Notes: generated by a model not told the origin, from the sequence alone. Shown: positions 16,976-55,250, numbered from the stretch's first letter. The stretch: DNA of 64,000 bases from Cyanidioschyzon merolae (GCA_000091205.1 AP006498.2); one strand, 5' to 3'. A program made the numbers and translations.

Positions 16976-17629
16976 TCAGTGGTACGCTTCTCTTGAGCTG
17001 ACGCTCCCTGCACCCACGTTTGGTGCCTCGAAGGCGGCATTCGGCGTCTCGGCGCTGGCCTCATGTTTCTGTTCGTTCATGATACCGAGCACCGTGCCCA
17101 TGGTCGCAACGCTCTGCTGCAGCGCGTTCAAAGTCGCTCGAAGTTCGGCGAGTTGCTCTTGCTGCTCGAGCCGTTGGCTGCTGATGGACTCCAGTTCGGC
17201 ACGTCGCTCGCAGATCTCCAACTCCAACTCGGAACAATTTGGTAGTCGCTCGATCTCGACACACAAAGCCCGCAGCTCTCGCTCGCTAGCTAACTGCGAC
17301 TCAGCAACGCTGAGCGCCTTCTTTTCCTCCGCGTATTGTTCCCGAAGTTGCTTCACTTGCGCCTCCAGTGTAGGCAGTGCTAGGCAACGAAGGTTGTCCT
17401 CGTCAGTGGCGAGCGCCTGCGCGGCTCTGGCGAAATGCTCGGCCGACTGCTCGAGCGCAGCCAGCGATCGAGCCAAAGCGTCCGGGGAGGTTTCCACTCC
17501 GCGTCCTGCTTGCGTGAGTACCAGCACTTGACCTGCTGACTGTAGGAACTCGTCGTAGCGCTGTTCAAGTCGTGCAGCGATTGCTGTTTCACAGTCACCG
17601 CTGTCGCTAACGGTGTACATTAGTGGCAT
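16976..17629 (-). CDS. hypothetical coiled-coil protein
   Basis: ORF rich in heptad-like 'LEQ...AEL...LRE' segments. The track start at 17698 lies inside the conserved Fanzor tail. The first in-frame ATGs are at 17629 and 17620, so the start is uncertain. No family recognised. Confidence 0.3.
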   Translation of the reverse strand: MPLMYTVSDSGDCETAIAARLEQRYDEFLQSAGQVLVLTQAGRGVETSPDALARSLAALEQSAEHFARAAQALATDEDNLRCLALPTLEAQVKQLREQYAEEKKALSVAESQLASERELRALCVEIERLPNCSELELEICERRAELESISSQRLEQQEQLAELRATLNALQQSVATMGTVLGIMNEQKHEASAETPNAAFEAPNVGAGSVSSREAYH

Positions 17630-17747
17630 GTGGCCCGCCCTAGACGAGAGGTCTCCAACTGACGTGCAGACGCGTCCCCGTCTTTTTCGACCGGCCACCC
17701 ACTACTGCTTCTAACTTTTTCTTATATAGTTCGACTTTAAGAGGTTG

Positions 17748-19716
17748 TCAAACAAAGTTCTCTCTTGTCAACTCTGGAGCTCTCGTCTCCAGCACCGCAC
17801 ATCTCCTGATATTGATGGCGGCATCGAAGTCACGATTCACGAATTCCATACGTTTCTTGCCATCGTTGGTTGTACTGACCAATGCGAGTAGTCCACGAAC
17901 TTTCGCCATCCTTTCCATTTGCTCCTCCGTAAGCGGTCCATACTTTATTATATCTTCAGGGCTCCTCTGGCACTTTTCCATCTCCACTCTCTGAAGTGTA
18001 CAACCCAGCTCGTGGTGTGTATACGATGTTCGAAACTCATCTACAGGTATCGTAACGAAACGCCGTGCACACTCCTTGTGCGCTCTCGTCGTTGGAGCTG
18101 GTGTACACCCTTTTTGGGTCTTCCAGCGCCCTGCTCCGTATGCTACGACGAGCCTCTGACTTTCATCCTCCTTCAGGGCGTTCAACTGATTGAAAAAGTT
18201 CGCGAACGCCCGCTGTTTCCCACAGTATAGATTCATACGCAGACGAGCCCACCGAGGCTTTGTATACTCCTCCCACAGCGCCTCCCAATGAGCAACGCGA
18301 ACTTTCATGAATTTCAGAAAAGCTTGAAAGTCCGCTCCTCGGCTCGTCACCTCGCTCATAGCTTCCAAGTGGTCCTTTATTCCTGCATTCCATGTCTTAA
18401 TTTTCTTCCTCGCATTCATGATTCCCGATTCTCGATAGTCTCTTGCTGTCGAGAACCTCAGAAGACGCATGTGTTTCTGACGCAAGTTACCGTCAGTACC
18501 GTCGTCCGCAAGCTTGGATACAGCGATGGATATGATATTTGTGTTTCCGGGGTCCGCGCCAACGACAAAGTCGTTTTCCTGCACTTTCTGCGTCGCAGCA
18601 TCCGCTTGTTTGTTTTCTTCATGTTTCGCCGAGCGCGAAGCCGAGGGCGGAACTGGACGATCTTTCCTCAACCGCAGATAGTGTACACACATGGGTATTC
18701 CATCGCTTTCAATCAACCCAGTGAATTCCTTTTTCTTGCTGACTTTGAGCCCTTTGAAATTGAAGATATTCTTCCAGTACGTCTCGCGGGTTTCGGCGGT
18801 GATCTCTGTGCTCCTTACATCGAACTCGGGACTGGTCTCAGTCATGATGCCGTAAAGGACGCCGGAGTCGATAGTCACAAAATGTGACTTGATGTTGCCC
18901 AACGGAACCACGTTGAAGCGCTCGCCCATTAGGAACGCCTTCCGTCTCTCCCATTCTTCATTTTTTTCCTCACTCAGCTTCATCTCCGCTTTGCGATCGA
19001 GCTCTCGGTCCAAAAACACAAAATACCGTAGGACGAGACGATCGTATCTTTCCTTATCTTTTTTCAACTCTGATATCTTGTCTGTCGGATTCGCCAGCCC
19101 CGAAACTGCACGGTGCTCTTGCATAACCGCACGGATTACAGAAGCTGCATTCGTGATCTCTTTTGACGCCTTCTTGTCGACGAATCCGATCCCATCTACA
19201 CGCCGGCGATTGTTCGTGATGCCATTGATAATCGCCCATATCCCTTTGGGAGAGATGCCCGGGATAGAGTGCAAATGCGGCGCGTATCATGAAACGTTCG
19301 AGGTTCGTTGTCAAACGATTCTCCAGATTCGTGAGTCACTTCATCGCCCCATAGTCGTAAATATCCCGGTCATCCCTGTACTGGGTACCCTCGAAGCGGA
19401 ATTCCGCGAAGTTTTCGTGGAGGGCATGCACCCGCTCATTTTCCATCCGCGCATCCTTTGTACCAAGCATCAGCTGACGAATAAACTTCTTATCGAAAAA
19501 CTCGTCCGGAATCTCGACCGTTTCCATGTGCGTCACGTCGCGATACATCTCCCGTACCAAATGCATCAGTCCTGACGACGCCTTTACAATACTCTTGGAG
19601 TACGAGTCGACACGGTTTCTGATAGCGTCTCGCAACTTTTCCCTGTAGGGATCCTTGATATGCTTAAGGACACCGGCTTTCACCACCATCTCGTCGTACA
19701 TTCGTCTTTCTTGCAT
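17748..19716 (-). pseudogene. Fanzor1-like TnpB-family RuvC nuclease, disrupted (~655 codons)
   Basis: The three track ORFs 19336..19716, 19054..19314 and 17748..19274 are pieces of one gene. Motifs: '[12 protein letters not shown]' (RuvC-I), 'CTPAPTTRAHKEC...HHELGCTLQRVEMEKC' (zinc finger) and 'KKRMEFVNRDFDAAINIRR' (RuvC-III). An in-frame TGA at 19333-19335 falls where copy B has Tyr. Near 19272 a 1-bp insertion ('tatcccggg' vs copy B 'tgcccggg') shifts the frame. Confidence 0.75.
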
Positions 19717-19733
19717 CGTTCGACGTAGAGCCT

Positions 19734-19743
19734 CCCCCCCCCC
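19734..19743. repeat. poly(C) tract (10 nt on + strand; poly(G) immediately 5' of the copy-A Fanzor start codon on the - strand)
   Basis: Reads 'cctccccccccccttt'. Confidence 0.8.
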
Positions 19744-20703
19744 TTTGGTCCTTCTTCTTTTCCTTTTCTTCTGGACTCGTCACTGTTTTTTGTTTTTTCT
19801 GGCAGCCGGCGACACTGGGCCTCCAGGATCGTGGACTTGCTTTTTCATCACTTTCCTTTTCTTGTTTGTTTTTGAAAAACAACGCTCTTTGATCCCTTCT
19901 GTTATACACAGCAAAAAATCAATCGAGCATTTTTCCTTGAGGTTTGAAACACAAATGAACTGAAAACTGTACTTTGCTACGACCTCAACGCAAACACAAC
20001 TTTTACAGCTGAACAAGACGCTTCTGATCGCGATTGCGTCTCCCTTCAACGGCGACGGGCGCGTCGTGTCTAATGCCTGCCAGATAAGGATGTGCGCGTA
20101 TCGGGCGCACTCTATAGAACAAAGAACAGATACTGACCATTAAATCGCCACGAGATAACGATTTCTTTCCCCTCTACGATAAACGTTGAGACGGGGAAAA
20201 CTGTCGGTACTTTCGAAAGTTTACCTTCTAGACGCAAGGTCCCGCGGATTGCACGAGTCTCCCAGGCTCGTGCTTCACGCTCCGCCACTGGCAGGTGCTT
20301 TCGTGACATCTGAGCAACTCGTCCGTAACGCACTCCACTCTGGGACTTGGAACGGGTAGCCGCCGTCTGGGCGTTGCCCATGATGCAGTGGACTCCTGGT
20401 ATATCGCGTTGCGCTGCCGCAGGCACTAGATCAATCTGCGCAGCTTGCAGACTCCTAGAACGACTATGAGCCACGACTCCGTTTCAGGTGAAGCGTTCCT
20501 CGGTCCGACGCCCTCAGAGGTATGGCAAAGCCGTTCAGTCTCCGTGATGCATCGGCATCAGCGATAGAACCGCAATTGCGGGTGCTCAAAGCAGGTAATC
20601 GGCGCTCGATAGAGCATAAGAATCGACCATTACATCCGAAAAGGTTTATGGGTCATGTAGCTTGAGGGTAAGTGCATCATGATGGATGCTTTCCCGAAAC
20701 CCA

Positions 20704-20728
20704 ACATCCATCCATCCATCCATCCATT
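20704..20728. repeat. (CATC)n microsatellite
   Basis: Reads 'catccatccatccatccatccat'. Confidence 0.85.
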
Positions 20729-21050
20729 CTGCAATCTAGGATCCATGGTCCACGTAAACGTTTTGTATAAAAAATTCTCATCAGCAGCAGCGACGGCGCT
20801 AGGCCCCAGCCGTCATCCTGGCGCCCGCTGAAGGCTCGCTGCGAAGCCTCGGCTGCATCGCAAGCCCAGGTGTCGTTCCGTTGTCAACCGAAAACACTTG
20901 TAGATCGAGTTGGTGCTGAACAACGTGGGCTCTGTGACTCCTCCCTAAACTCTTGCTCGCTTCTGATTGGGAAAAGGTTTGCAGCCTCAAACAGTGTGTG
21001 GAGAACACTAGAACTTAACCAACACCACACCGCCCACGACACAGTTACCC

Positions 21051-25453: not shown

Positions 25454-25662
25454 GACGCGCAGAACAACGCGGACTTGGAAGCGAAGTCGCTGATGCCCAC
25501 TGCACTACCCGTACGAGTCCAGGGGTCTAAGCTGTGACTGTCCGGCGTCCAGCACGAGCAGCGAAAATCGCGAAAGCGTTTTGGCTTGACGCTGGGCGCT
25601 GTGTCCAGTGTGACTGGATCCGCCAACGTTGACGACGCGTGCGCCGCACGTGGCATTCCTGG

Positions 25663-26130
25663 AGCGGGCGTATGCGAACCCTGAACCTACGGAAGCGAGT
25701 TGCTCTCAGAGCGGGCGTGTGCGAACCCTGAACCTACGGAGGCGAGTTGCTCTCAGAGCGGGCGTGTGCGAACCCTGAACCTACGGAGGCGAGTTGCTCT
25801 CAGAGCGGGCGTATGCGAACCCTGAACCTACGGAAGCGAGTTGCTCTCAGAGCGGGCGTATGCGAACCCTGAACCTACGGAGGCGAGTTGCTCTCAGAGC
25901 GGGCGTGTGCGAACCCTGAACCTACGGAGGCGAGTTGCTCTCAGAGCGGGCGTGTGCGAACCCTGAACCTACGGAGGCGAGTTGCTCTCAGAGCGGGCGT
26001 ATGCGAACCCTGAACCTACGGAAGCGAGTTGCTCTCAGAGCGGGCGTATGCGAACCCTGAACCTACGGAGGCGAGTTGCTCTCAGAGCGGGCGTATGCGA
26101 ACCCTGAACTTACGGAAGCGAGTTGCTCCC
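25663..26130. repeat. 47-bp minisatellite, ~10 tandem copies
   Basis: The unit 'gagcgggcgt(a/g)tgcgaaccctgaacctacgga(a/g)gcgagttgctctca' repeats head-to-tail with a/g variants at two positions. It lies ~200 bp upstream of the 25453 start of the lipase-like gene. Confidence 0.9.
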
Positions 26131-28261
26131 GGAACGAGCTTCGGATTCTGGAAAAGCGTTCGCAGTCTATGGAAGCGATGAAATCCTGTAGATGCGTTGA
26201 GATTGTATGGAGGCTCCCGCACCTGTAGTGGCGTTTGCTCAGTATTCAAGCTTCCGCTGAAGATGCGCTTGACCATTTACCGAAGCATCGATGCTCTTCG
26301 GTACGTGACTGCTCGAATCCGAATTGATTTCCGCTACACAGACAAATTTGAAGGTGTCGGGTTTCGCTCCTTCTCCTAATCGTATTTTCGACGGTATTCC
26401 CGGTACCGAGCCTGACGGTTCACAGACTCGATCCTGTGGCGATCTGGAGGCCCCGAAAGCGTCTAGCAGAATAGTAGTTGCGCGGAGCACTTGGTGGCCT
26501 ATGATTATCGATCTAGTCTGCAGCAAGTATGTGTTTTTAAATGCTCGGCGTTTTTTTGGCGTCTGCGACCCCAAAACGTTCTCTTGTATTTAATGAAGAA
26601 CAAGCTCGACGGCCGAGTCTGCGCACACGGATACGGAACACGTGCTGAACGTCGATGCACTGGCAACGCGCGAAGCACGCTGCACTTTCAGAACAGCAGC
26701 GTGTGCGGCTCGCTCGATTTCATGCATCCGCAGCAAGTCACCAGCAAAGCGACGAGCTGCGCGACTCTCGTATTCTCGCTAACAGGTCGCTGGCGACTTG
26801 CTCAGGTTTCCATACAGCCGAGGCACCATGGGTATATGCTCCAAACGACCCCGCTCGCTGCTTGTTGAAGTTCACGCGAAACGTTTGGGCCGTAAATGTG
26901 CGGACCCGCCCCAAGGATCTGGAGAAACGTTCCACGCGATGCGTCGCTGCTTGCTCGCAAGACTCAAACCCGTTTTCAATCGATGCTCTGTGCGAAGAAC
27001 AGAGCGCCATCCCGGTTCGGCGGCTGGGCCTCAGATCGAGCACGGGTGTACTACCTCTTATGGGGCGGGCATCTTTATCCTATTCGTCTTTTTATGATAG
27101 GCTCGGACACGTGTCCGCGACACGCATATCGGGCTCGCCTGCCCTGAGCGCCCCCCGGACACGTAGCGCTCAGATGCGTGCGTGTCTGAGTACCTAGACA
27201 TGAATGTACAATTAGGACGATGCAGGGTGAATTCTCCACAACGCCTCTTTACCTCTCGTGTGATCCCAGGAGCGAAGCGCATGCATCCCAGCAATATGCA
27301 TCCTGCATATAGCGCAAAGACAATGAAATGATGTCCAGTTCAGTTGCTTCGGGATACTAATCGGAGCGAACGGACCTGGACTTGTGGTTGTGCAGGTTGT
27401 CGTCTTCTAGACCGCACGTGGTTCTGGGCCCGAGTCCAATCGGCATTCCAGGAGGACGCTAGCAGCTGGCATGCCATGAGCATGAGCGAGCGACGGAAGC
27501 GGGTAATGGACGAGTCGATCGCCGGCTACAGGCCCAGCAAACCAGCGCTCGGTTTCGCAGCTCGTTCTTTCACGATATCCTCTTAGCGGTGGCTGCAAAG
27601 CGCGTTGGATAAGTACAGTCCAGGCACTGGAGCGAGCTTTAACGGAACTGCGAACAATATCCATTCCAGACGCTATTCAGCTTGCGTACGTACAGCGTTG
27701 CCATAGGAAGCAACCAGGCCCCTTGAAAAGAAAGGGTTGTTCTGGGCTCCCGTCCCGCTGATGAAGCGTACCTCCATCTATCAAACGCTCATCTCCAGAA
27801 CGTCGCAAGTTCGGCGACAAGACAATCAAGTGTGGGATCAGACGGGCCTCAGCGGCTGGCGTCATGTTGGCGTCGGAGTAGTTCTCAAAGGGCGTGTGTG
27901 TGTGTGTGCCGCCGCCCCAGCTTTTTCTTATGGCTCGCACTCGTTGCGTCCCCGAACCAGGTTCCCCGGAAGCGGGGGTACGGCAGGTACGTCAGGACGA
28001 TGAACAGAGCTCGTCCGCAGTCGATTCCATATACGCACTGCTTCTGCACCAGACAGGAACTCGTTGCTGACAACTGGCCTCAGCCGCACGAAGCGAGCCG
28101 TGCTGAGCGATGATTCGGGGGCGTCCAGAGATCCAGCGCAGTCGAGTCGTTCTGGGGCCCGAGGTGCACTGAACTCAATACCCGCTGTTACTCGCTCGCA
28201 TTCCTATTCATCAAAGTTCGAATCGGCCGACATATGCGTGCCATTGGGTCACTGAACGTCC

Positions 28262-43595: not shown

Positions 43596-43925
43596 CAGAC
43601 AATCAGAATGTCCGTCTCGTTCTATAAACTACTGGTATGAACGTCTCTGCGAGTCGCTTGTCGTCAGGATGTCCGTCTCTTTCCATAAAATACAGGTATG
43701 GCAAGTTTCTACTTGCCGCTTGTCGTCAGAATGTCCGTCTCTTTCCATAAAATACAGGTATGGCAAGTTTCTACTTGCCGCTTGTCGTCAGAATGTCCGT
43801 CTCTTTCCATAAAATACAGGTATGGCAAGTTTCTACTTGCCGCTTGTCGTCAGAATGTCCGTCTCTTTCCATAAAATACAGGTATGGCAAGTTTCTACTT
43901 GCCGCTTGTCGTCAGAATGTCCGTT
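43596..43925. repeat. 62-bp tandem repeat, ~5 copies
   Basis: The unit is 'cgcttgtcgtcagaatgtccgtctctttccataaaatacaggtatggcaagtttctacttgc'. The first copy is degenerate and four are near-perfect. Track ORFs 43516/43760/43822 are artefacts of the repeat. Confidence 0.9.
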
Positions 43926-45789: not shown

Positions 45790-46310
45790 GGCGTACAAGC
45801 AACGTCCCAAGTTGATCCATCCATCTATGTATTTATACTCAGCAAAACGGATATCTTTCTAGGACCATAGAGTGTGTATAGAAACCTACTGACAGACGCC
45901 CCGTAGCATCAATGGACCCATGGGCTGCAATCAGCTTAAGTTTATACCTGCACACTTCGTGCATCAAAGGCTGCGTCGCAAAATTCACTCGTGTCTGCTC
46001 CGCGAGTCTCGTCTTCAGCACCGCTTTCCGTCTGACATTGATGGCGGTGTAAAAGTCCCAGTTCACGAATTCCATGCGTTTATCGCCTCTGGTGAAACGG
46101 ACGTATGCAAGGATGCCTCGAAATCATACCCTCCGTGCCACTAGTCTCGTGGATCTCTCCTCTTCTTCCTCACCTACTCTTCTTCGCACGACGGTCGGCG
46201 AGAAAAGGATCTTTTTCGTTATTTTTCCGGGAGCCGGCGACACCGGGCCTCCAGTATCCTCGATTTCCATGTACATAACTTTTCCTTGATTCTTTTATTT
46301 CTTCAAATAA
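45790..46310 (-). mobile_element. internally deleted Fanzor-family element (5' conserved block fused to the RuvC-III coding remnant plus 3' tail)
   Basis: ORF 45839..46075(-) reads '...RGILAYVRFTRGDKRMEFVNWDFYTAINVRR', matching the copy-A C-terminus 'RGLLALVSTTNDGKKRMEFVNRDFDAAINIRR'. The DNA below it is homologous to the copy A/B tail ('ggtccattgatgctacggggcgtctgtcagtagg' vs 'ggtccaaaaaaggggaggcgtctgcacgtcagttgg'). Positions 46141-46310 match the copy-A 5' block ('gggagccggcgacaccgggcctccagtatcc' vs 'ggcagccggcgacactgggcctccaggatcg'). Confidence 0.6.
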
Positions 46311-49951: not shown

Positions 49952-50095
49952 ACTCGTCACGAAACGCGAGCACAATACGCACAGCTCCGAGTCGGGCATC
50001 TGGCAGTGCAGGTGCTCTCGACGGGGGTATCTGGCGCGGCAGTCGCGATCCGCGGCGCTTTCGTTTGTGACGCTCGGCGATCAATTCGTGACAGC

Positions 50096-50101
50096 ACGAC
50101 G

Positions 50102-50133
<32 letters not shown>

Positions 50134-50255
50134 GCAGCGGCTGGAATGCGCACCTAATCGGAGAACGCTGGCCCAAGTAAACGTTTTGTCAATGAAAAAA
50201 AAGCTGGAATGCGCACCTAATCGGAGAACGCTGGCCCAAGTAAACGTTTTGTCAA
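50096..50255. repeat. (GCGT)n microsatellite followed by a ~62-bp tandem duplication (2.3 copies)
   Basis: 'acgtgcgtgcgtgcgtgcgtgcgtgcgtgcgtgcgg' is followed by 'gctggaatgcgcacctaatcggagaacgctggcccaagtaaacgttttgtcaatgaaaaaaaa' twice plus a partial third copy. It lies 150-300 bp upstream of the ACBP start. Confidence 0.85.
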
Positions 50256-51014
50256 TGAAAAAAAAAGCTGGAATGCGCAGGCGCTCTGCATTCGCCAAAT
50301 GCGATCGTGCGGTGCCTGCTTCCGCTGCTGCTTCTCGCGCATTCGGGCCCTGGGCAGTGCCTCGTACATTCGTCGATACTGTACCACACGAGTCGATCCG
50401 GCTGCATCAGAGAGCAGCAGCTTTAGCGGGATACGAGTTTTGGTCGAAGGTAGGTCGTTTAGATTCAAGGAGCTCATGATGTGGAGTTTTGAAGTGAATA
50501 GCGCCCGCGACATCACCCGAGTCGATGCAATCTGCTTTCGCTGATGCGGGAGACGGAGTATTTCCGATCACAAAACGTTTACGTTGACCATGTATCCCAG
50601 ATTGCGGAGTGGTTACTGGTTTTCGGGAAAGCGTTCATTATAACGCAACCTACCTTCAAGTTCTATGGCCTGTTCTCAGATATTCTGGTCGTTTTGTTCG
50701 TTCTATTATGCGCCGAGTTCCTGTCTTACTGCACCCGCCGTGGCGCTTATGCCGTTGAGGCAGATGCTTCACGGAGCTGAATAGCATTGCCATATCACTA
50801 GCGGCTTCGGTTCGAGGCATGATTCATTCGACATGGAGTCGGGCTATATGATTATCCTGGGAGCCTGCAAGCTGCGCAAACAGGCCGACAGTCTGCGACA
50901 GCGTGAAGCGATAAGCTGGGAGTCCATTGCGACCAGGGCGACGCCCAGATGTAGCGTTCCAGTCCCAGTTCCAGAATGAACTGCATTGCGGGCGAGTTGC
51001 TTGGATCTCCCTAC

Positions 51015-53195
51015 AGCTTTAGCTACTGAGGGGTGAATGAAGCACGAGCCTAGGGGACATTCTTGGACATATCAAGGATCCGTACGAGCAGGAATTTCGA
51101 GAGGCCATCAGAAACCGTTTCGCGTCCCACTCCATGAGTATTAAAAAGGCTTCTTCAGAACTAATGCATATGGTGAAGGAGATTTATCGCGACATGACTG
51201 ACATCATAACAGTGGAGGTTCCGGAAGAATTTTGGAACAGGAACTTTATTCGTCACCTGATGCCTGGCACATGGGAAACGTCAAAGAGAGATGAACTCGT
51301 GCGTGCGTTCCACGAGGGTCGCGCCGAATTCCGCTTCAAGGGTACTCGATACAGGGGCGATAGGGATATTTACGACTATGGGGCTATGAAGTATCTCACG
51401 AACCTGAAGAACCATTTGACAACCAACCTCGAACGTTTCATAATAAGAGCCGTATTTGCGCTCTGCCCGGGCATCTCTCGCAAAGGGATATGGGCGATTA
51501 TCAATGACATCACGAACGATCGCAAGCATGAAGATGGGGTCGAATTCGTCGACAAGAAGGAGTCAAACGAGAGCACGAATGAAGCTTCTGTGATCCGTGC
51601 GGTTGTACAAGAGCACCGTGCAGTCGTGGGGCTGGCGAATCCGCCAGAAAAGATATCAGAGTTGAAAAAAGATAAGGAAAGATACGATCGCCTCGTCCTG
51701 CGCTATTTCCTGTTTTTGGACCGAGAACTCGAACGCAAGGCGGAGATGAAACTGAGTGAGGAAAGCAATGAAGAGTGGGAGAGACAGAAGGCTTTCCTAG
51801 TGGGTAAGCGCTTCAATGGCGTTCTGTTGTGCAACATAAAGTCACATTTCGTGAGTATCGACTCCGGAGTCCTCTAAGGCATCATGAAGGAGATCTGTCC
51901 GGAGTTCGATGTCAGCAGGGAGGAATTCACCGGCGAAACCCGTCCGACGTACTGGAAGAGTATCTTCGATTTCAAACGTCTCAAAGTGAGCAGGCAAAAG
52001 TTGTTCACTGGGATAATCGAAACCGATGGAGTAGCCATGTCTGTAAACTATCGGCTGTTGAAGAAAGATCGTCCAGTTCCGCCCTCGGCTTCGCCAGTGA
52101 CGAAGGATGAAGAAAAGGAGGAGGCCGGTCCTGCGACACAGGATGTGCAGGATAACGACCTTGTCGTTGGCGCGGCGAAGGATGAAGATGAGGAGGAGGC
52201 GGGTCCTGCGACGCACAAAGTGCAAGATAACGACTTTGCCGTTGGCGCGGACCCCGGAAACACAAATATCATCACCATGGCAGTACCCAAGCGTGTGGAA
52301 GATGGCGCTGACGGCAACTTACGTCAGAAAGACATGCGTTTGTTGAGATTCTCGAGAGCGAGACACTATCGAGAATCGGGAATCATGAATGCGAGGAAGA
52401 AAATCGAGACTTGGAATGCTGGAATAAAGGACCACTTGGAAGCTATGAGCGAGGTGACGAGCCGAGGAGCGGGCTTTCAAGCTTTCCGGAAATTTATGAA
52501 AGTTCGCGTTGCTCACTGGGATGCGCTGTGGGAAGAATATACAAAGCCTCGGTGGGCTCGTCTGCGTATGAATCTATACTGTGGGAAGCAGCGGGCGTTC
52601 GCGAACTTTTTCAATCAGTTGAGCGCCCTGAAGGAGGATGAAAGTCAGAGGCTCGTCGTAGCATACGGAGCAGGGCGCTGGAAGACCCAAAAAGGGTGTA
52701 CGCCAGCTCCAACTACAAGAACGTACAAGGAGTGTGCACGGCGTTTCGTTACGATACCTGTAGATGAGTTTCGAACATCGTATACACACCACGAGCTGGG
52801 TTGTACACTTCAGAGAGTGGAGATGGAAAAGTGCCAGAGGAGCCCTGAGGAAATCGCAAAGTACGCACCGCTGACGGAGAAGCAAATGGAAAGGATGGCG
52901 AAAGGTCGACGACTACTTGCATTAGTAAGTACAACCAATGATAGCAAGAAACGTATGGAGTTCGTGAACCGAAACTTTAACGCCGCTATCAATATAAGGA
53001 GATGTGTGGCGCTGTAGAAAAGACCCTCCAGAGTTGAGAGAATTTCGTGGGACAACCTCTCAAAGTGGAACTATATGAGAAAAAGTTGAGAGAAGTAGTA
53101 GGTGGCCGGTCCAAAAAAGGGGAGGCGTCTGCACGTCAGTTGGCGACTTCGTGTCTAGGGCGCATTCGCCGCCACTACTGTACACCGCTGGCGAC
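51015..53195 (+). mobile_element. Fanzor/TnpB-like element copy B (5'-altered decayed ORF plus conserved 3' non-coding tail)
   Basis: Homologous to copy A at the protein level and along the 3' tail through ~53195. Copy B lacks the 5' 'ccggcgacac' block seen in copy A and the deleted copy. Confidence 0.7.
51037..53017 (+). pseudogene. Fanzor1-like TnpB-family RuvC nuclease, disrupted (copy B)
   Basis: An in-frame TAA at 51878-51880 falls where copy A has Tyr (TAC). A ~14-nt indel near the N-terminus sits between ATG 51037 and 'catatcaaggatcc'. A 75-bp in-frame tandem duplication (52103-52252) gives '[25 protein letters not shown]|[25 protein letters not shown]'. RuvC-III reads 'NRNFNAAINIRR' (Asp to Asn) and the stop comes earlier ('CVAL*'). 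Confidence 0.75.
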
Positions 53196-53326
53196 TGCTT
53201 TCGACTTTTGAAAGGCGTTCGCTGTCGCTGCCATGTGCTTCCGCAAAACCGCCTCCTCTGAACGGCCTCGACATCCGCTTTCGCAATAAAAGGCTCCGCG
53301 GGGTTTCCAATTGCTAAAACACGAGC

Positions 53327-54376
53327 TTAAAGACGGCGGTGTCTTTGAAAGATAAACACCGACTTGTCCCCGAGATCGTCCCGGATATTCTGCACAAATT
53401 TCCGTAAGGAAAATACCGTCATGAAAATGGCGACTACTGTGCTCAACGCGAGTCCCGAGTTTCCGGACGCGGTGCTCCACCAACCCAAGAAGTGTCCACC
53501 AACGAGTACCGGGACCAGCATGGCAAGCACCGACGCTTCTGCGCGTCGGAAACAGAACGCTTCCTTGAAGAACACGCCTGTCAGCGCCGCCGCCACCCAG
53601 CCGGCTCCCGTTAGAACGCCAACTGGATGCTGTATCAACCAGTGCACATACAAGTCGTGCGTGTTTGTCCATACCATCCACTCACTCAGTGCCGAGGTGA
53701 GTATTCCAAAGCCCAGCAAATACTGCAGCGCTCGATGAAGCGGCTTCAAGTAGATGTGGATGTAGTGTAGTGCGATACCCAGCCCGGCGACGCCACTCCA
53801 GTAGAGCGCCTCCACGAACGCAGTCGACCTGAATTGAGCCAAGTCCAGTGGGAGCTCTCCGTTCCCACTCGTTAACCAGGCCGCTCCAACAGCTGTCACA
53901 GCAGCTAAGGTAACCAACGCCATGCCCGCACGGTAAGCGCGCACCTCGCGAACGTCGGCCTCGGTTAGGAACCACTCACCAAAGGCGCCGGCGTACGGAC
54001 CACCGAGAACTTTATCTTCGTTTTGGCTGGACTTGAACGAGTTTGGTGAGAGCGACAGGCGCCAGCAGCGCTCCATACCACCATTACAACGCCGGCGACC
54101 TTGTCGTCGCTGCTGAACGCACCTGCTGTTCCGTGCTCTGAGCAAGGCGCGCATCTCAAATTGACGAGACGCTTGCCGACAGCACGTCTTGCTCCCATGT
54201 GTGCTAGGTAATAAAACCGTTCGAGAAAAAGACGAGTAAACAAAGTTGAAAGTCATGACGAACGGACCGTCGACGAGAGCGAAAAGCGCGTCTCGAAACC
54301 CAAGGAGATTATCGTTCCAGTGTTTCCGCCACTGCACGGCGGCCGATGACGACTTCGAGCTGCATACGCGGCACAA
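53327..54376 (-). CDS. hypothetical multi-pass membrane protein
   Basis: Several hydrophobic helices ('GMALVTLAAVTAVGAAWL', 'WSGVAGLGIALHYIHIYL', 'LLGFGILTSALSEWMVW', 'GVLTGAGWVAAALTGVFF', 'VLAMLVPVLVGGHFLGWW', 'LALSTVVAIFMTVFSL'). The true start is uncertain ('MRALLRARNS' or 'MERCW' are plausible internal starts). No family recognised. Confidence 0.35.
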   Translation of the reverse strand: MCRVCSSKSSSAAVQWRKHWNDNLLGFRDALFALVDGPFVMTFNFVYSSFSRTVLLPSTHGSKTCCRQASRQFEMRALLRARNSRCVQQRRQGRRRCNGGMERCWRLSLSPNSFKSSQNEDKVLGGPYAGAFGEWFLTEADVREVRAYRAGMALVTLAAVTAVGAAWLTSGNGELPLDLAQFRSTAFVEALYWSGVAGLGIALHYIHIYLKPLHRALQYLLGFGILTSALSEWMVWTNTHDLYVHWLIQHPVGVLTGAGWVAAALTGVFFKEAFCFRRAEASVLAMLVPVLVGGHFLGWWSTASGNSGLALSTVVAIFMTVFSLRKFVQNIRDDLGDKSVFIFQRHRRL

Positions 54377-54519: not shown

Positions 54520-55250
54520 TGTGAGTAAACCAGAAAATGTTCCACGGATACTGGGGGTAGATTCATACCCACCAATAGAAACATCCGAGCATTTATGGAC
54601 TGGCCGCCTGCTTTCGGCATCAGCTTCTCCTTATAAAAGCATCAGAGGCTGCATCATGATTTTAGATCGCCTCAGGTCTTCAAGTCTGTTCTTCAGTGCC
54701 GCAAATCGTCTGATATCTATGCTCGCGTTACAGTCTCGTTTCACAAACTCTAGGCGTTTATTGCCACTGGTTGAACTCATGATTGCAAGCATTGCTAGCA
54801 CTGGTGCCGTCAACCACTCTACAGTTTCGTCTGTCGCTCATCTTCTCCTTTTCCCATTTCTTCGTTATTTGCTCTTCTTCGCTCCATGTTCGGCGAGAAG
54901 AGCTATTTGCCCGACGACACAATGATGAGCCTGTCGTGGCACTGAGGTCGCGAGTTCTAGCAATCCTTGCATATCTGCGTTCAACCAGAGGCAATAAACG
55001 CATGAATTCAGTGAACCGAGGCGTCGACGCCAGCATCAATATCAGACGAGTTGCAGTGCTAAAGACGAGCCCCCAGGAGCTGACGCGAGCCAACGCTGTC
55101 CGGCAACCTCTGATACTCCAGGTATTCCGGGAGAAACGGAAGCCGATAGCATTCGACCGCTCCATAAATGCCACGAGACGTCTCCAAGTGGATATACCAT
55201 GCATCCCCATGATTGGGGAATGTTTTTCGTTTTATCGTTATTGCCCGCGG
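54520..55250. repeat. ~730-bp near-palindrome (inverted repeat) built from two Fanzor 3' ends, arms ~54520-54850 (-) and ~54910-55250 (+), centred ~54885
   Basis: The reverse complement of the left arm aligns with the right arm at ~80% identity. Each arm encodes a RuvC-III remnant: 'NKRLEFVKRDCNASIDIRRFAAL' on the minus strand and 'NKRMNSVNRGVDASINIRRVAVLKTSPQELTRAN' on the plus strand. Each continues into sequence homologous to the copy A/B non-coding tail ('ggcaacctctgatactccagg' vs 'ggacaacctctcaaagtggaac'). The centre is itself palindromic: 'gctcttcttcgctccatgttcggcgagaagagc'. Confidence 0.75.

Follow-up and report, generated by a model that had tools for sequence, protein, structure and literature searches.

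Fanzor1, which descends in eukaryotes from bacterial TnpB, is an endonuclease that cuts double-strand DNA under the guidance of RNA and has a split RuvC site (Asp-Glu-Asp). In active Fanzor elements the protein carries an omega-RNA, for which the 3' end of its gene together with the transposon end serves as template. For the red alga Cyanidioschyzon merolae, the parts of Bao & Jurka (2013, Mob DNA 4:12; PMC3627910) concerning this genome describe one Fanzor1 family, represented by the element CMe-1A, with CMe-1 classed as Fanzor1 and the Fanzor1 motif given as D-X-[TS][TS]-X-X-[C4 Zn finger]-X-RD. The same parts report ~150 copies with ~80% identity to a consensus of ~3 kb, a few of them still intact, no terminal inverted repeats (TIRs) and undetermined target-site duplications (TSDs), and state that the 5' 635 bp share 95% identity with TE-N2_CMe, an element of its own present in ~70 copies (PMC3627910). 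Here we analyse a window of 64,000 nucleotides of nuclear DNA from chromosome 16 of C. merolae 10D (GCA_000091205.1, AP006498.2), in which an original prediction, made from the sequence alone, had recognised two Fanzor-like copies, A and B. Copy B is, in all probability, a dead insertion of CMe-1A, composed of a ~0.6-kb non-coding 5' module resembling TE-N2_CMe and of a ~2.5-kb unit encoding Fanzor1.

As outlined by alignment to copy A and to family copies, the degraded copy B element lies on the plus strand at 50570-53219, while copy A is a complete-length composite element of ~3.17 kb on the minus strand (17590..20766; BLASTN and full alignment), divided into a 5' module (~20766-20100) and a Fanzor unit (~20085-17590). 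When the region was compared with the window by BLASTN, B 51068-53198 matched A 19662-17600 on the opposite strand with 82-88% nucleotide identity and E = 0, so that the homology of the two copies, extending over ~2.1 kb, goes well beyond short motifs; further upstream, 489 bp of B (50570-51058) matched A 20766-20257 with 68% identity. Both limits originally assigned to copy B were thus revised, the 5' limit from 51015 to 50570 and the 3' boundary, by family-wide conservation, from 53195 to about 53219.

Family profile and modelled fold agree in predicting that copies A and B encode remnants of a Fanzor1 (TnpB-like) protein. A homolog search returned 143 relatives, nearly all from JGI metagenomes and including full-length proteins of 676-731 amino acids (aa) with basic MPPK(G)KRK N-termini; a second, profile-based search added only about ten new sequences. 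Wider relatives were gathered by a search that took a central distant representative as its seed, and an exhaustive HMMER search with the family profile yielded 2,842 cluster representatives at E <= 1e-3. Sub-threshold matches to Pfam PF07282 (Cas12f1-like TNB) were found in 4 of 10 sampled relatives, and the precomputed tag PF26935 stands for no more than DUF8286; the term PF26935 was not found in the literature searched. The profile used against PDB sequences was built from an alignment of 131 sequences with copy A first (A3), and it matched Fanzor1 of Parasitella parasitica (9cf0, E 2.7e-19) and of Spizellomyces punctatus (8gkh, E 1.1e-12), with the motifs FTGTIETDG, DPG, DEFRT and NRD in register. 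The fold was modelled by AlphaFold2 on the 508-aa open reading frame (ORF) of copy A, the N-terminal ~190 aa lying outside the model; with the deep alignment the run reached pLDDT 88.4 and pTM 0.82, whereas a run with 15 sequences gave an unusable model (pLDDT 42.7), on which no fold search was made. In Foldseek against PDB the first seven ranks were all Fanzor1 (SpuFz, PpFz and GtFz; E 1.6e-13 to 3.6e-9, TM ~0.5), followed by Cas12o, Cas12i, TnpB, Cas-phi and Cas12f. The profile matches and the Fanzor1-first order of the fold matches thus confirm the Fanzor identity originally proposed, and specify it as Fanzor1.

Some results weigh against this assignment. No family was assigned by Pfam or NCBIfam either to the window ORFs or to five homologs, close or distant, and neither phmmer with copy A nor a 15-sequence profile gave a meaningful match among PDB sequences; since such shallow searches are blind to these ORFs, a deep alignment was needed for their recognition. 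In addition, the canonical CxxC...CxxC zinc finger is absent in both copies and in the whole 131-sequence aligned family: the sites aligned to CxxC...CxxxxC of SpuFz and PpFz read T-H-H-E...A-L-V-S in the window copies and mostly H/Y...W-C in the family, and as judged from the alignment the C4 zinc finger is degenerate across the whole subfamily.

Relatives with 31-41% identity were also observed on contigs from brine, freshwater and other non-hot-spring metagenomes (loci L056, L057 and L072-L082), and one relative in NCBI is a protein of the green alga Tetrabaena socialis. Together with the 2,842 cluster representatives, these indicate that the DUF8286 Fanzor1 subfamily is widespread in algae.

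Along copy B, the 5' module (50570..51058, plus strand, as all features of this copy) is a non-coding segment that begins with the terminal 13-mer ACAAAACGTTTAC. It ends at a breakpoint (51058..51059) where, by pairwise alignment, ~586 bp of A (20256-19671) are missing; the absent segment takes in the last part of the 5' module together with the start codon and the basic N-terminus, and replaces the ~14-nt N-terminal indel first suggested, which is not present. Homology to the coding region of A starts abruptly at 51059, and the translation of B begins at residue 37 of the homolog P0001. From there a Fanzor1 pseudo-ORF of 652 codons extends in one frame to 53014, as defined by translation, family profile and the fold of copy A, and it is divided by a single TAA into the ORFs 51134..51877 and 51884..53017. 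In agreement with the original prediction, this TAA (51875..51877) stands where copy A has TAC; the A/B and family alignment places the lost Tyr in the motif ...VLYGIM..., present in nearly all relatives.

The first two residues of the RuvC site are intact in copy B. The RuvC-I catalytic Asp (GADPG, 52250..52252) corresponds by alignment to D241 of copy A and to the DPGR/DPNK of PpFz/SpuFz, and is invariant or nearly so in the alignments A2 and A3; the RuvC-II Glu (VDEFRTS, 52766..52768) is kept in 129/129 aligned sequences and aligns to IDEFRTS/LDEYKTS of the solved Fanzor1. By contrast, at 52973..52975 the RuvC-III Asp, encoded by GAC in the family, is replaced by Asn (AAC), the motif reading NRNFNAAINIRR in B versus NRDFDAAINIRR in A; as the original prediction had noticed, the catalytic residue is lost, and among the 129 aligned sequences copy B has the sole Asn, the other 128 carrying Asp at this site, which aligns to NRD of the solved Fanzor1. 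Because the third residue of the triad is Asn, copy B is catalytically dead. The D/E/D triad is conserved at nearly 100% in the family and copy B reads D, E, N, a departure that reflects its pseudogene status and not a wrong family assignment.

The earlier stop attributed to copy B was also found: a premature TAG (53015..53017) occupies the position of a GAG in A and in the family, as seen in the A/B and family alignment. Downstream, indels of +1 (53024), -5 (53036) and -2 (53119) break the rest of the C-terminal frame; these further lesions, a net -4 frameshift at 53024/53036 and the 2-bp deletion, had been overlooked. The remaining 53018..53219, delimited by 3' alignments of 39-49 family copies, contains the remnant of the last ~45 codons and a conserved non-coding 3' terminus with small hairpins. 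Within the aligned 2.1 kb, A and B differ by indels of 1 bp, 75 bp, +1, -5 and -2 bp only. Copy B is, therefore, a pseudogene unable to make a nuclease.

The 75-bp difference corresponds to a feature that had been counted among the lesions. At 52101..52250 copy B carries two in-frame units (52101-52175 and 52176-52250; 86.7% identity) of a 75-bp, 25-codon tandem repeat, encoding an acidic stretch or linker followed by the first half of the first RuvC (RuvC-I) beta-strand. The repeat is thus real and in frame as originally described, but it is not decay: TRF over 64 family copies counted one unit in 21 copies, two in 10, three in 6, four in 11, five in 11, six in 3 and seven in 2. The homolog alignment likewise contains members with 1, 2, 4 and 5 units, and a sister clade of ~40% identity has none. 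Near-full-length open frames with three or four units were found at metagenome loci L001 (819 codons), L071 (778) and L005 (772). Moreover, the loss of Asp reported for the first repeat only marks where one unit ends and the next begins, the catalytic Asp being intact directly after the last unit. In the model of copy A, the repeat linker lies between a WED strand and RuvC strand 1, and residues ~201-235 are the sole long low-confidence stretch within the ORF (pLDDT 47-60). Since the unit number varies from one to seven, also in nearly intact ORFs, the catalytic Asp is kept and the linker is disordered, the 75-bp unit is a coding variable-number tandem repeat of the family and not a lesion of copy B. 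Neither this repeat nor the 3' hairpins discussed below was met in the parts of the 2013 account that deal with CMe-1A (Bao & Jurka 2013). We regard as rather unlikely that the acidic array before RuvC-I is a selected module of a still-active Fanzor1 lineage of hot-spring Cyanidiales, for instance a disordered linker that mimics DNA or is autoinhibitory, instead of a tolerated minisatellite; if this were the case, RNA-guided nucleases derived from thermo-acidophiles would have a natural source in the near-intact metagenomic members with the hairpin RNA of their 3' ends.

Copy A is a pseudogene as well. It keeps D/E/D, with an Asp two residues beyond the RuvC-III Asp at a near-invariant Asn (Asn in 127 sequences), and is interrupted by a TGA at 19336-19338 where B has TAT, by a +1 frameshift at 19264 and, at 17748-17750, by a TGA in the place of the Gly of ...NF(V/I)GQPLKVELYE...; its N-terminal region probably contains, judging from the sequence, a frameshift in a G10 run. 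The family consensus frame runs ~36 codons past the stop of A and ends at a TAG within GTCTAGGGCG, and since it extends beyond the stops of both A and B, both copies are truncated.

The relationship between the two copies was evaluated from their divergence. Protein identity, originally estimated at 85-95%, amounts to 78% when all 624 aligned codons are compared and to 82% for ORF2 with the gap excluded, and it approaches 90% in the RuvC half alone. The ratio of non-synonymous to synonymous substitutions (dN/dS) was 0.36 (Nei-Gojobori; bootstrap 95% confidence interval 0.28-0.47) with dS 0.32, decreasing to 0.19 in the RuvC half, and the differences at the three codon positions were 71/65/130. 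Thus, most of the divergence arose while purifying selection acted on the protein, in transposon lineages that were distinct and had not yet lost function; the view of the locus as ordinary neutral decay holds for the disabling lesions, which are a thin later layer, but not for most of the divergence between A and B. The two copies share the composite architecture and lie in opposite orientation 31 kb apart, as expected if one were a local or segmental duplicate of the other and all differences were due to neutral decay since. We consider this highly unlikely, because neutral decay predicts a ratio of ~1, and third-position differences are twice those at the first or second position. Moreover, the homology ends at the element ends, with no similarity between the flanks in the window comparison, the similarity of metagenome copies to B is roughly that of A to B, and ~150 dispersed copies of the family are reported in the parts of PMC3627910 on CMe-1A. 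On the observed ratio together with the non-homologous flanks a segmental duplication is rejected; copies A and B inserted independently and were each disabled afterwards, and are not a pair of duplicates decaying in place.

In both copies a Tyr codon has become a stop, and B is otherwise open for 652 codons, which could suggest a functional gene read through its stops by reassignment, readthrough or editing. The chance of this is extremely remote. The original prediction had already noted that the nonsense changes fall at different Tyr codons (TAA in B versus TAC in A; TGA in A versus TAT in B) and had not seen in them a reassigned code, and we agree on both points. Each copy contains frameshifts or deletions that no recoding would rescue, including in B the three C-terminal indels, so that stop-codon reassignment is not needed and, considering also the differing positions of the stops, is rejected. 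To this must be added that B has no start codon and no N-terminus and is unique among the 129 sequences in its catalytic Asn, and that the neighbouring genes follow the standard code: eight long ORFs of the window are letter-for-letter the annotated C. merolae 10D proteins with CMP25x-CMP27x locus tags, which lie on a contig of 908,485 bp. The reading of copy B as a dead insertion of CMe-1A accommodates the best-conserved non-coding part of the family as well. Across 39-49 distinct copies, conservation of the final ~200 nt reaches up to a sharp edge, ...TCGAACGGCGTT, at ~53219 in B, and this stretch includes four short hairpins, two within the last codons and two after the stop, the terminal one at 53197-53216 in B. 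At the hairpin sites 79% of the alignment cells pair, versus 34-48% when the partners are slid, and 27 double-change cells were counted versus 13.5 in shuffles, with 0/500 shuffles reaching the observed value; examples of such compensatory changes lead from G-C to C-G or A-U, and there are G-U wobbles workable only on the sense RNA strand. The picture is tempered by two points: the tested helices were derived from the consensus itself, so that the slide control is biased towards them, and RNAalifold on the whole 3' alignment returned a weak and partly implausible long-range consensus (-3.4 kcal/mol). An Rfam scan of 50000-54000 gave no match. On the whole, by analogy with known Fanzor elements, the region suggests a candidate omega-RNA scaffold. 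As the guide RNA of TnpB and Fanzor is known to come from exactly this 3' region, whose hairpins are kept in B, the locus might have been retained, with its protein gene dead, for a non-coding role, for instance as donor of omega-RNA in trans to intact CMe-1A nucleases; however, three of the indels of B are inside the region and its conservation is equally explained by recent common ancestry of the transposon copies, and we find this role very improbable.

Just past the conserved 3' end (columns ~272-286 of alignment A4; 53220-53235 in B) many copies show T/G-rich, triplet-like sequences, such as GTTGTTGGTG, GGTGGTGGTG and GTTTGTTGTTCGTGGT. These may reflect a preferred target site, or else a stretch by which the element is extended further in certain subfamilies.

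The history of copy B can be reconstructed as follows. By homology, the active CMe-1A protein would associate with an RNA copied from the gene's 3' end and the end of the transposon, and would cut DNA matching the adjacent guide through its D-E-D RuvC site. In the active ancestors the protein was under purifying selection, and the 25-residue acidic linker unit expanded and contracted between one and seven copies. After insertion, copy B was disabled by the 5' loss of ~586 bp, a nonsense change, the RuvC-III Asp-to-Asn replacement, a second nonsense change and the C-terminal frameshifts. Homology, fold, lesions, variation of the repeat and selection on the divergence of A and B follow from the data presented here, whereas the RNA-guided cleavage by the ancestors and the omega-RNA role of the 3' hairpins are inferred from solved and tested Fanzor1 relatives; the Fanzor1 structures among the Foldseek matches are complexes of Fanzor with omega-RNA and target DNA.

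The host transposon, whose identification had been left to a search for its ends, was outlined at 50570-53219 with no inverted repeat between the ends of copy B in a terminal inverted repeat search and no TSD evident on inspection of the flanks. Family members fall into two classes of 5' end, starting at the equivalent of A ~20085 (Fanzor unit only) or of ~20766 (with the ~680-bp module), and in metagenome loci this module occurs also alone or in other orientations near Fanzor units. It was observed alone, downstream of or inverted to Fanzor units at L015 7193-7556, L027 4737-5342 and L028 7193-7798, and in reverse orientation at L031, L033 and L038. The two 5'-end classes and these arrangements suggest that the TE-N2-like module is an independent element repeatedly landing beside, or mobilised with, Fanzor units. 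Its terminal 13-mer, which marks the 5' terminus in both copies, has four exact matches in the window against 0.07 expected. Moreover, a 63-bp unit is tandemly repeated 2.2 times at 50140-50279, ~300 bp before the start of copy B, following a (CGTG)8 run (50100-50133); each unit carries the inverted exact 13-mer with ~45 further terminus-like bases beside an A9 run, and a 57-bp match (95%) to this region is found in metagenome locus L001 (2401-2455). These units may be solo termini of the module.

The window, with a GC content of ~56%, belongs to the compact, intron-poor genome of the red alga, and the Fanzor copies are surrounded by ordinary eukaryotic genes, encoding a Myb protein, an MscS-like channel, a DDHD lipase, the mitochondrial ribosomal protein L2, a Sec7 GEF and a DUF2301 membrane protein. 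Other remnants were observed. On the minus strand, 45894-46294 is a ~400-bp internally deleted Fanzor derivative lacking nearly all the sequence between its end pieces, in which 46294-46212 resembles the N-terminal basic region of A (19786-19863, 78%) and 46087-45979 the RuvC-III/C-terminal part (17753-17861, 76%). At 54589-55183, just upstream of the Sec7 GEF gene, fragments akin to the C-terminal piece of A (17740-17875 vs 55111-54979, 73%) and related also to 45894-46141 include an imperfect inverted pair (54589-54802 vs 55171-54953, 70%). In the self-comparison of the window, two unrelated tandem arrays, with 91-97% identity between units, are present at 25662-26139 (~94-bp period) and 43603-43924 (~62-bp).

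For biology at large these results matter little, as a Fanzor1 family published in 2013 was re-identified from raw sequence and copy B is a pseudogene. They correct, on the other hand, the reading of the locus: the RuvC-I duplication is not to be scored as a lesion, the copies derive as independent insertions from selected lineages, and the genetic code shows no anomaly. Two features could be useful for the mining of Fanzor in thermoacidophilic red algae, namely the variable coding repeat in a disordered linker and the 3' hairpin region conserved across ~60 hot-spring metagenome copies, some of which are nearly intact.

Compared with known systems, the locus is nearest to CMe-1A. On the description in the parts of PMC3627910 devoted to it, the likeness includes the same genome, the length (~3.1 kb for copy A), a separable 5' part of ~0.6 kb, the absence of TIRs, copies ~80% alike and a TnpB-like protein with a D...E...RD motif; nothing essential differs, and copies A and B are members of this already described family, an assignment based on the published description. 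The solved Fanzor1 proteins, SpuFz (8gkh, 9ceu-9cez), PpFz (9cf0-9cf3) and GtFz (9cer), share with the family the overall fold and profile-level homology with the motifs aligned, and the basic N-terminus of the full-length relatives is compatible with nuclear import; however, the identity is just 12-18%, the window copies are pseudogenes, the zinc finger of SpuFz and PpFz has non-Cys residues in the CMe-1A-like family, and an acidic variable repeat precedes RuvC-I in the latter. More distant are bacterial TnpB (IS200/IS605, IS607) and Cas12, with which the RuvC fold, the order of the catalytic triad and the expected origin of the guide RNA from the 3' end of the gene are in common: TnpB 8h1j and several Cas12 structures were the next, much weaker Foldseek matches (E 3e-4 to 3e-2, TM ~0.2), and unlike them copies A and B reside in a eukaryotic nuclear genome, with no TnpA gene nearby and a larger N-terminal half.

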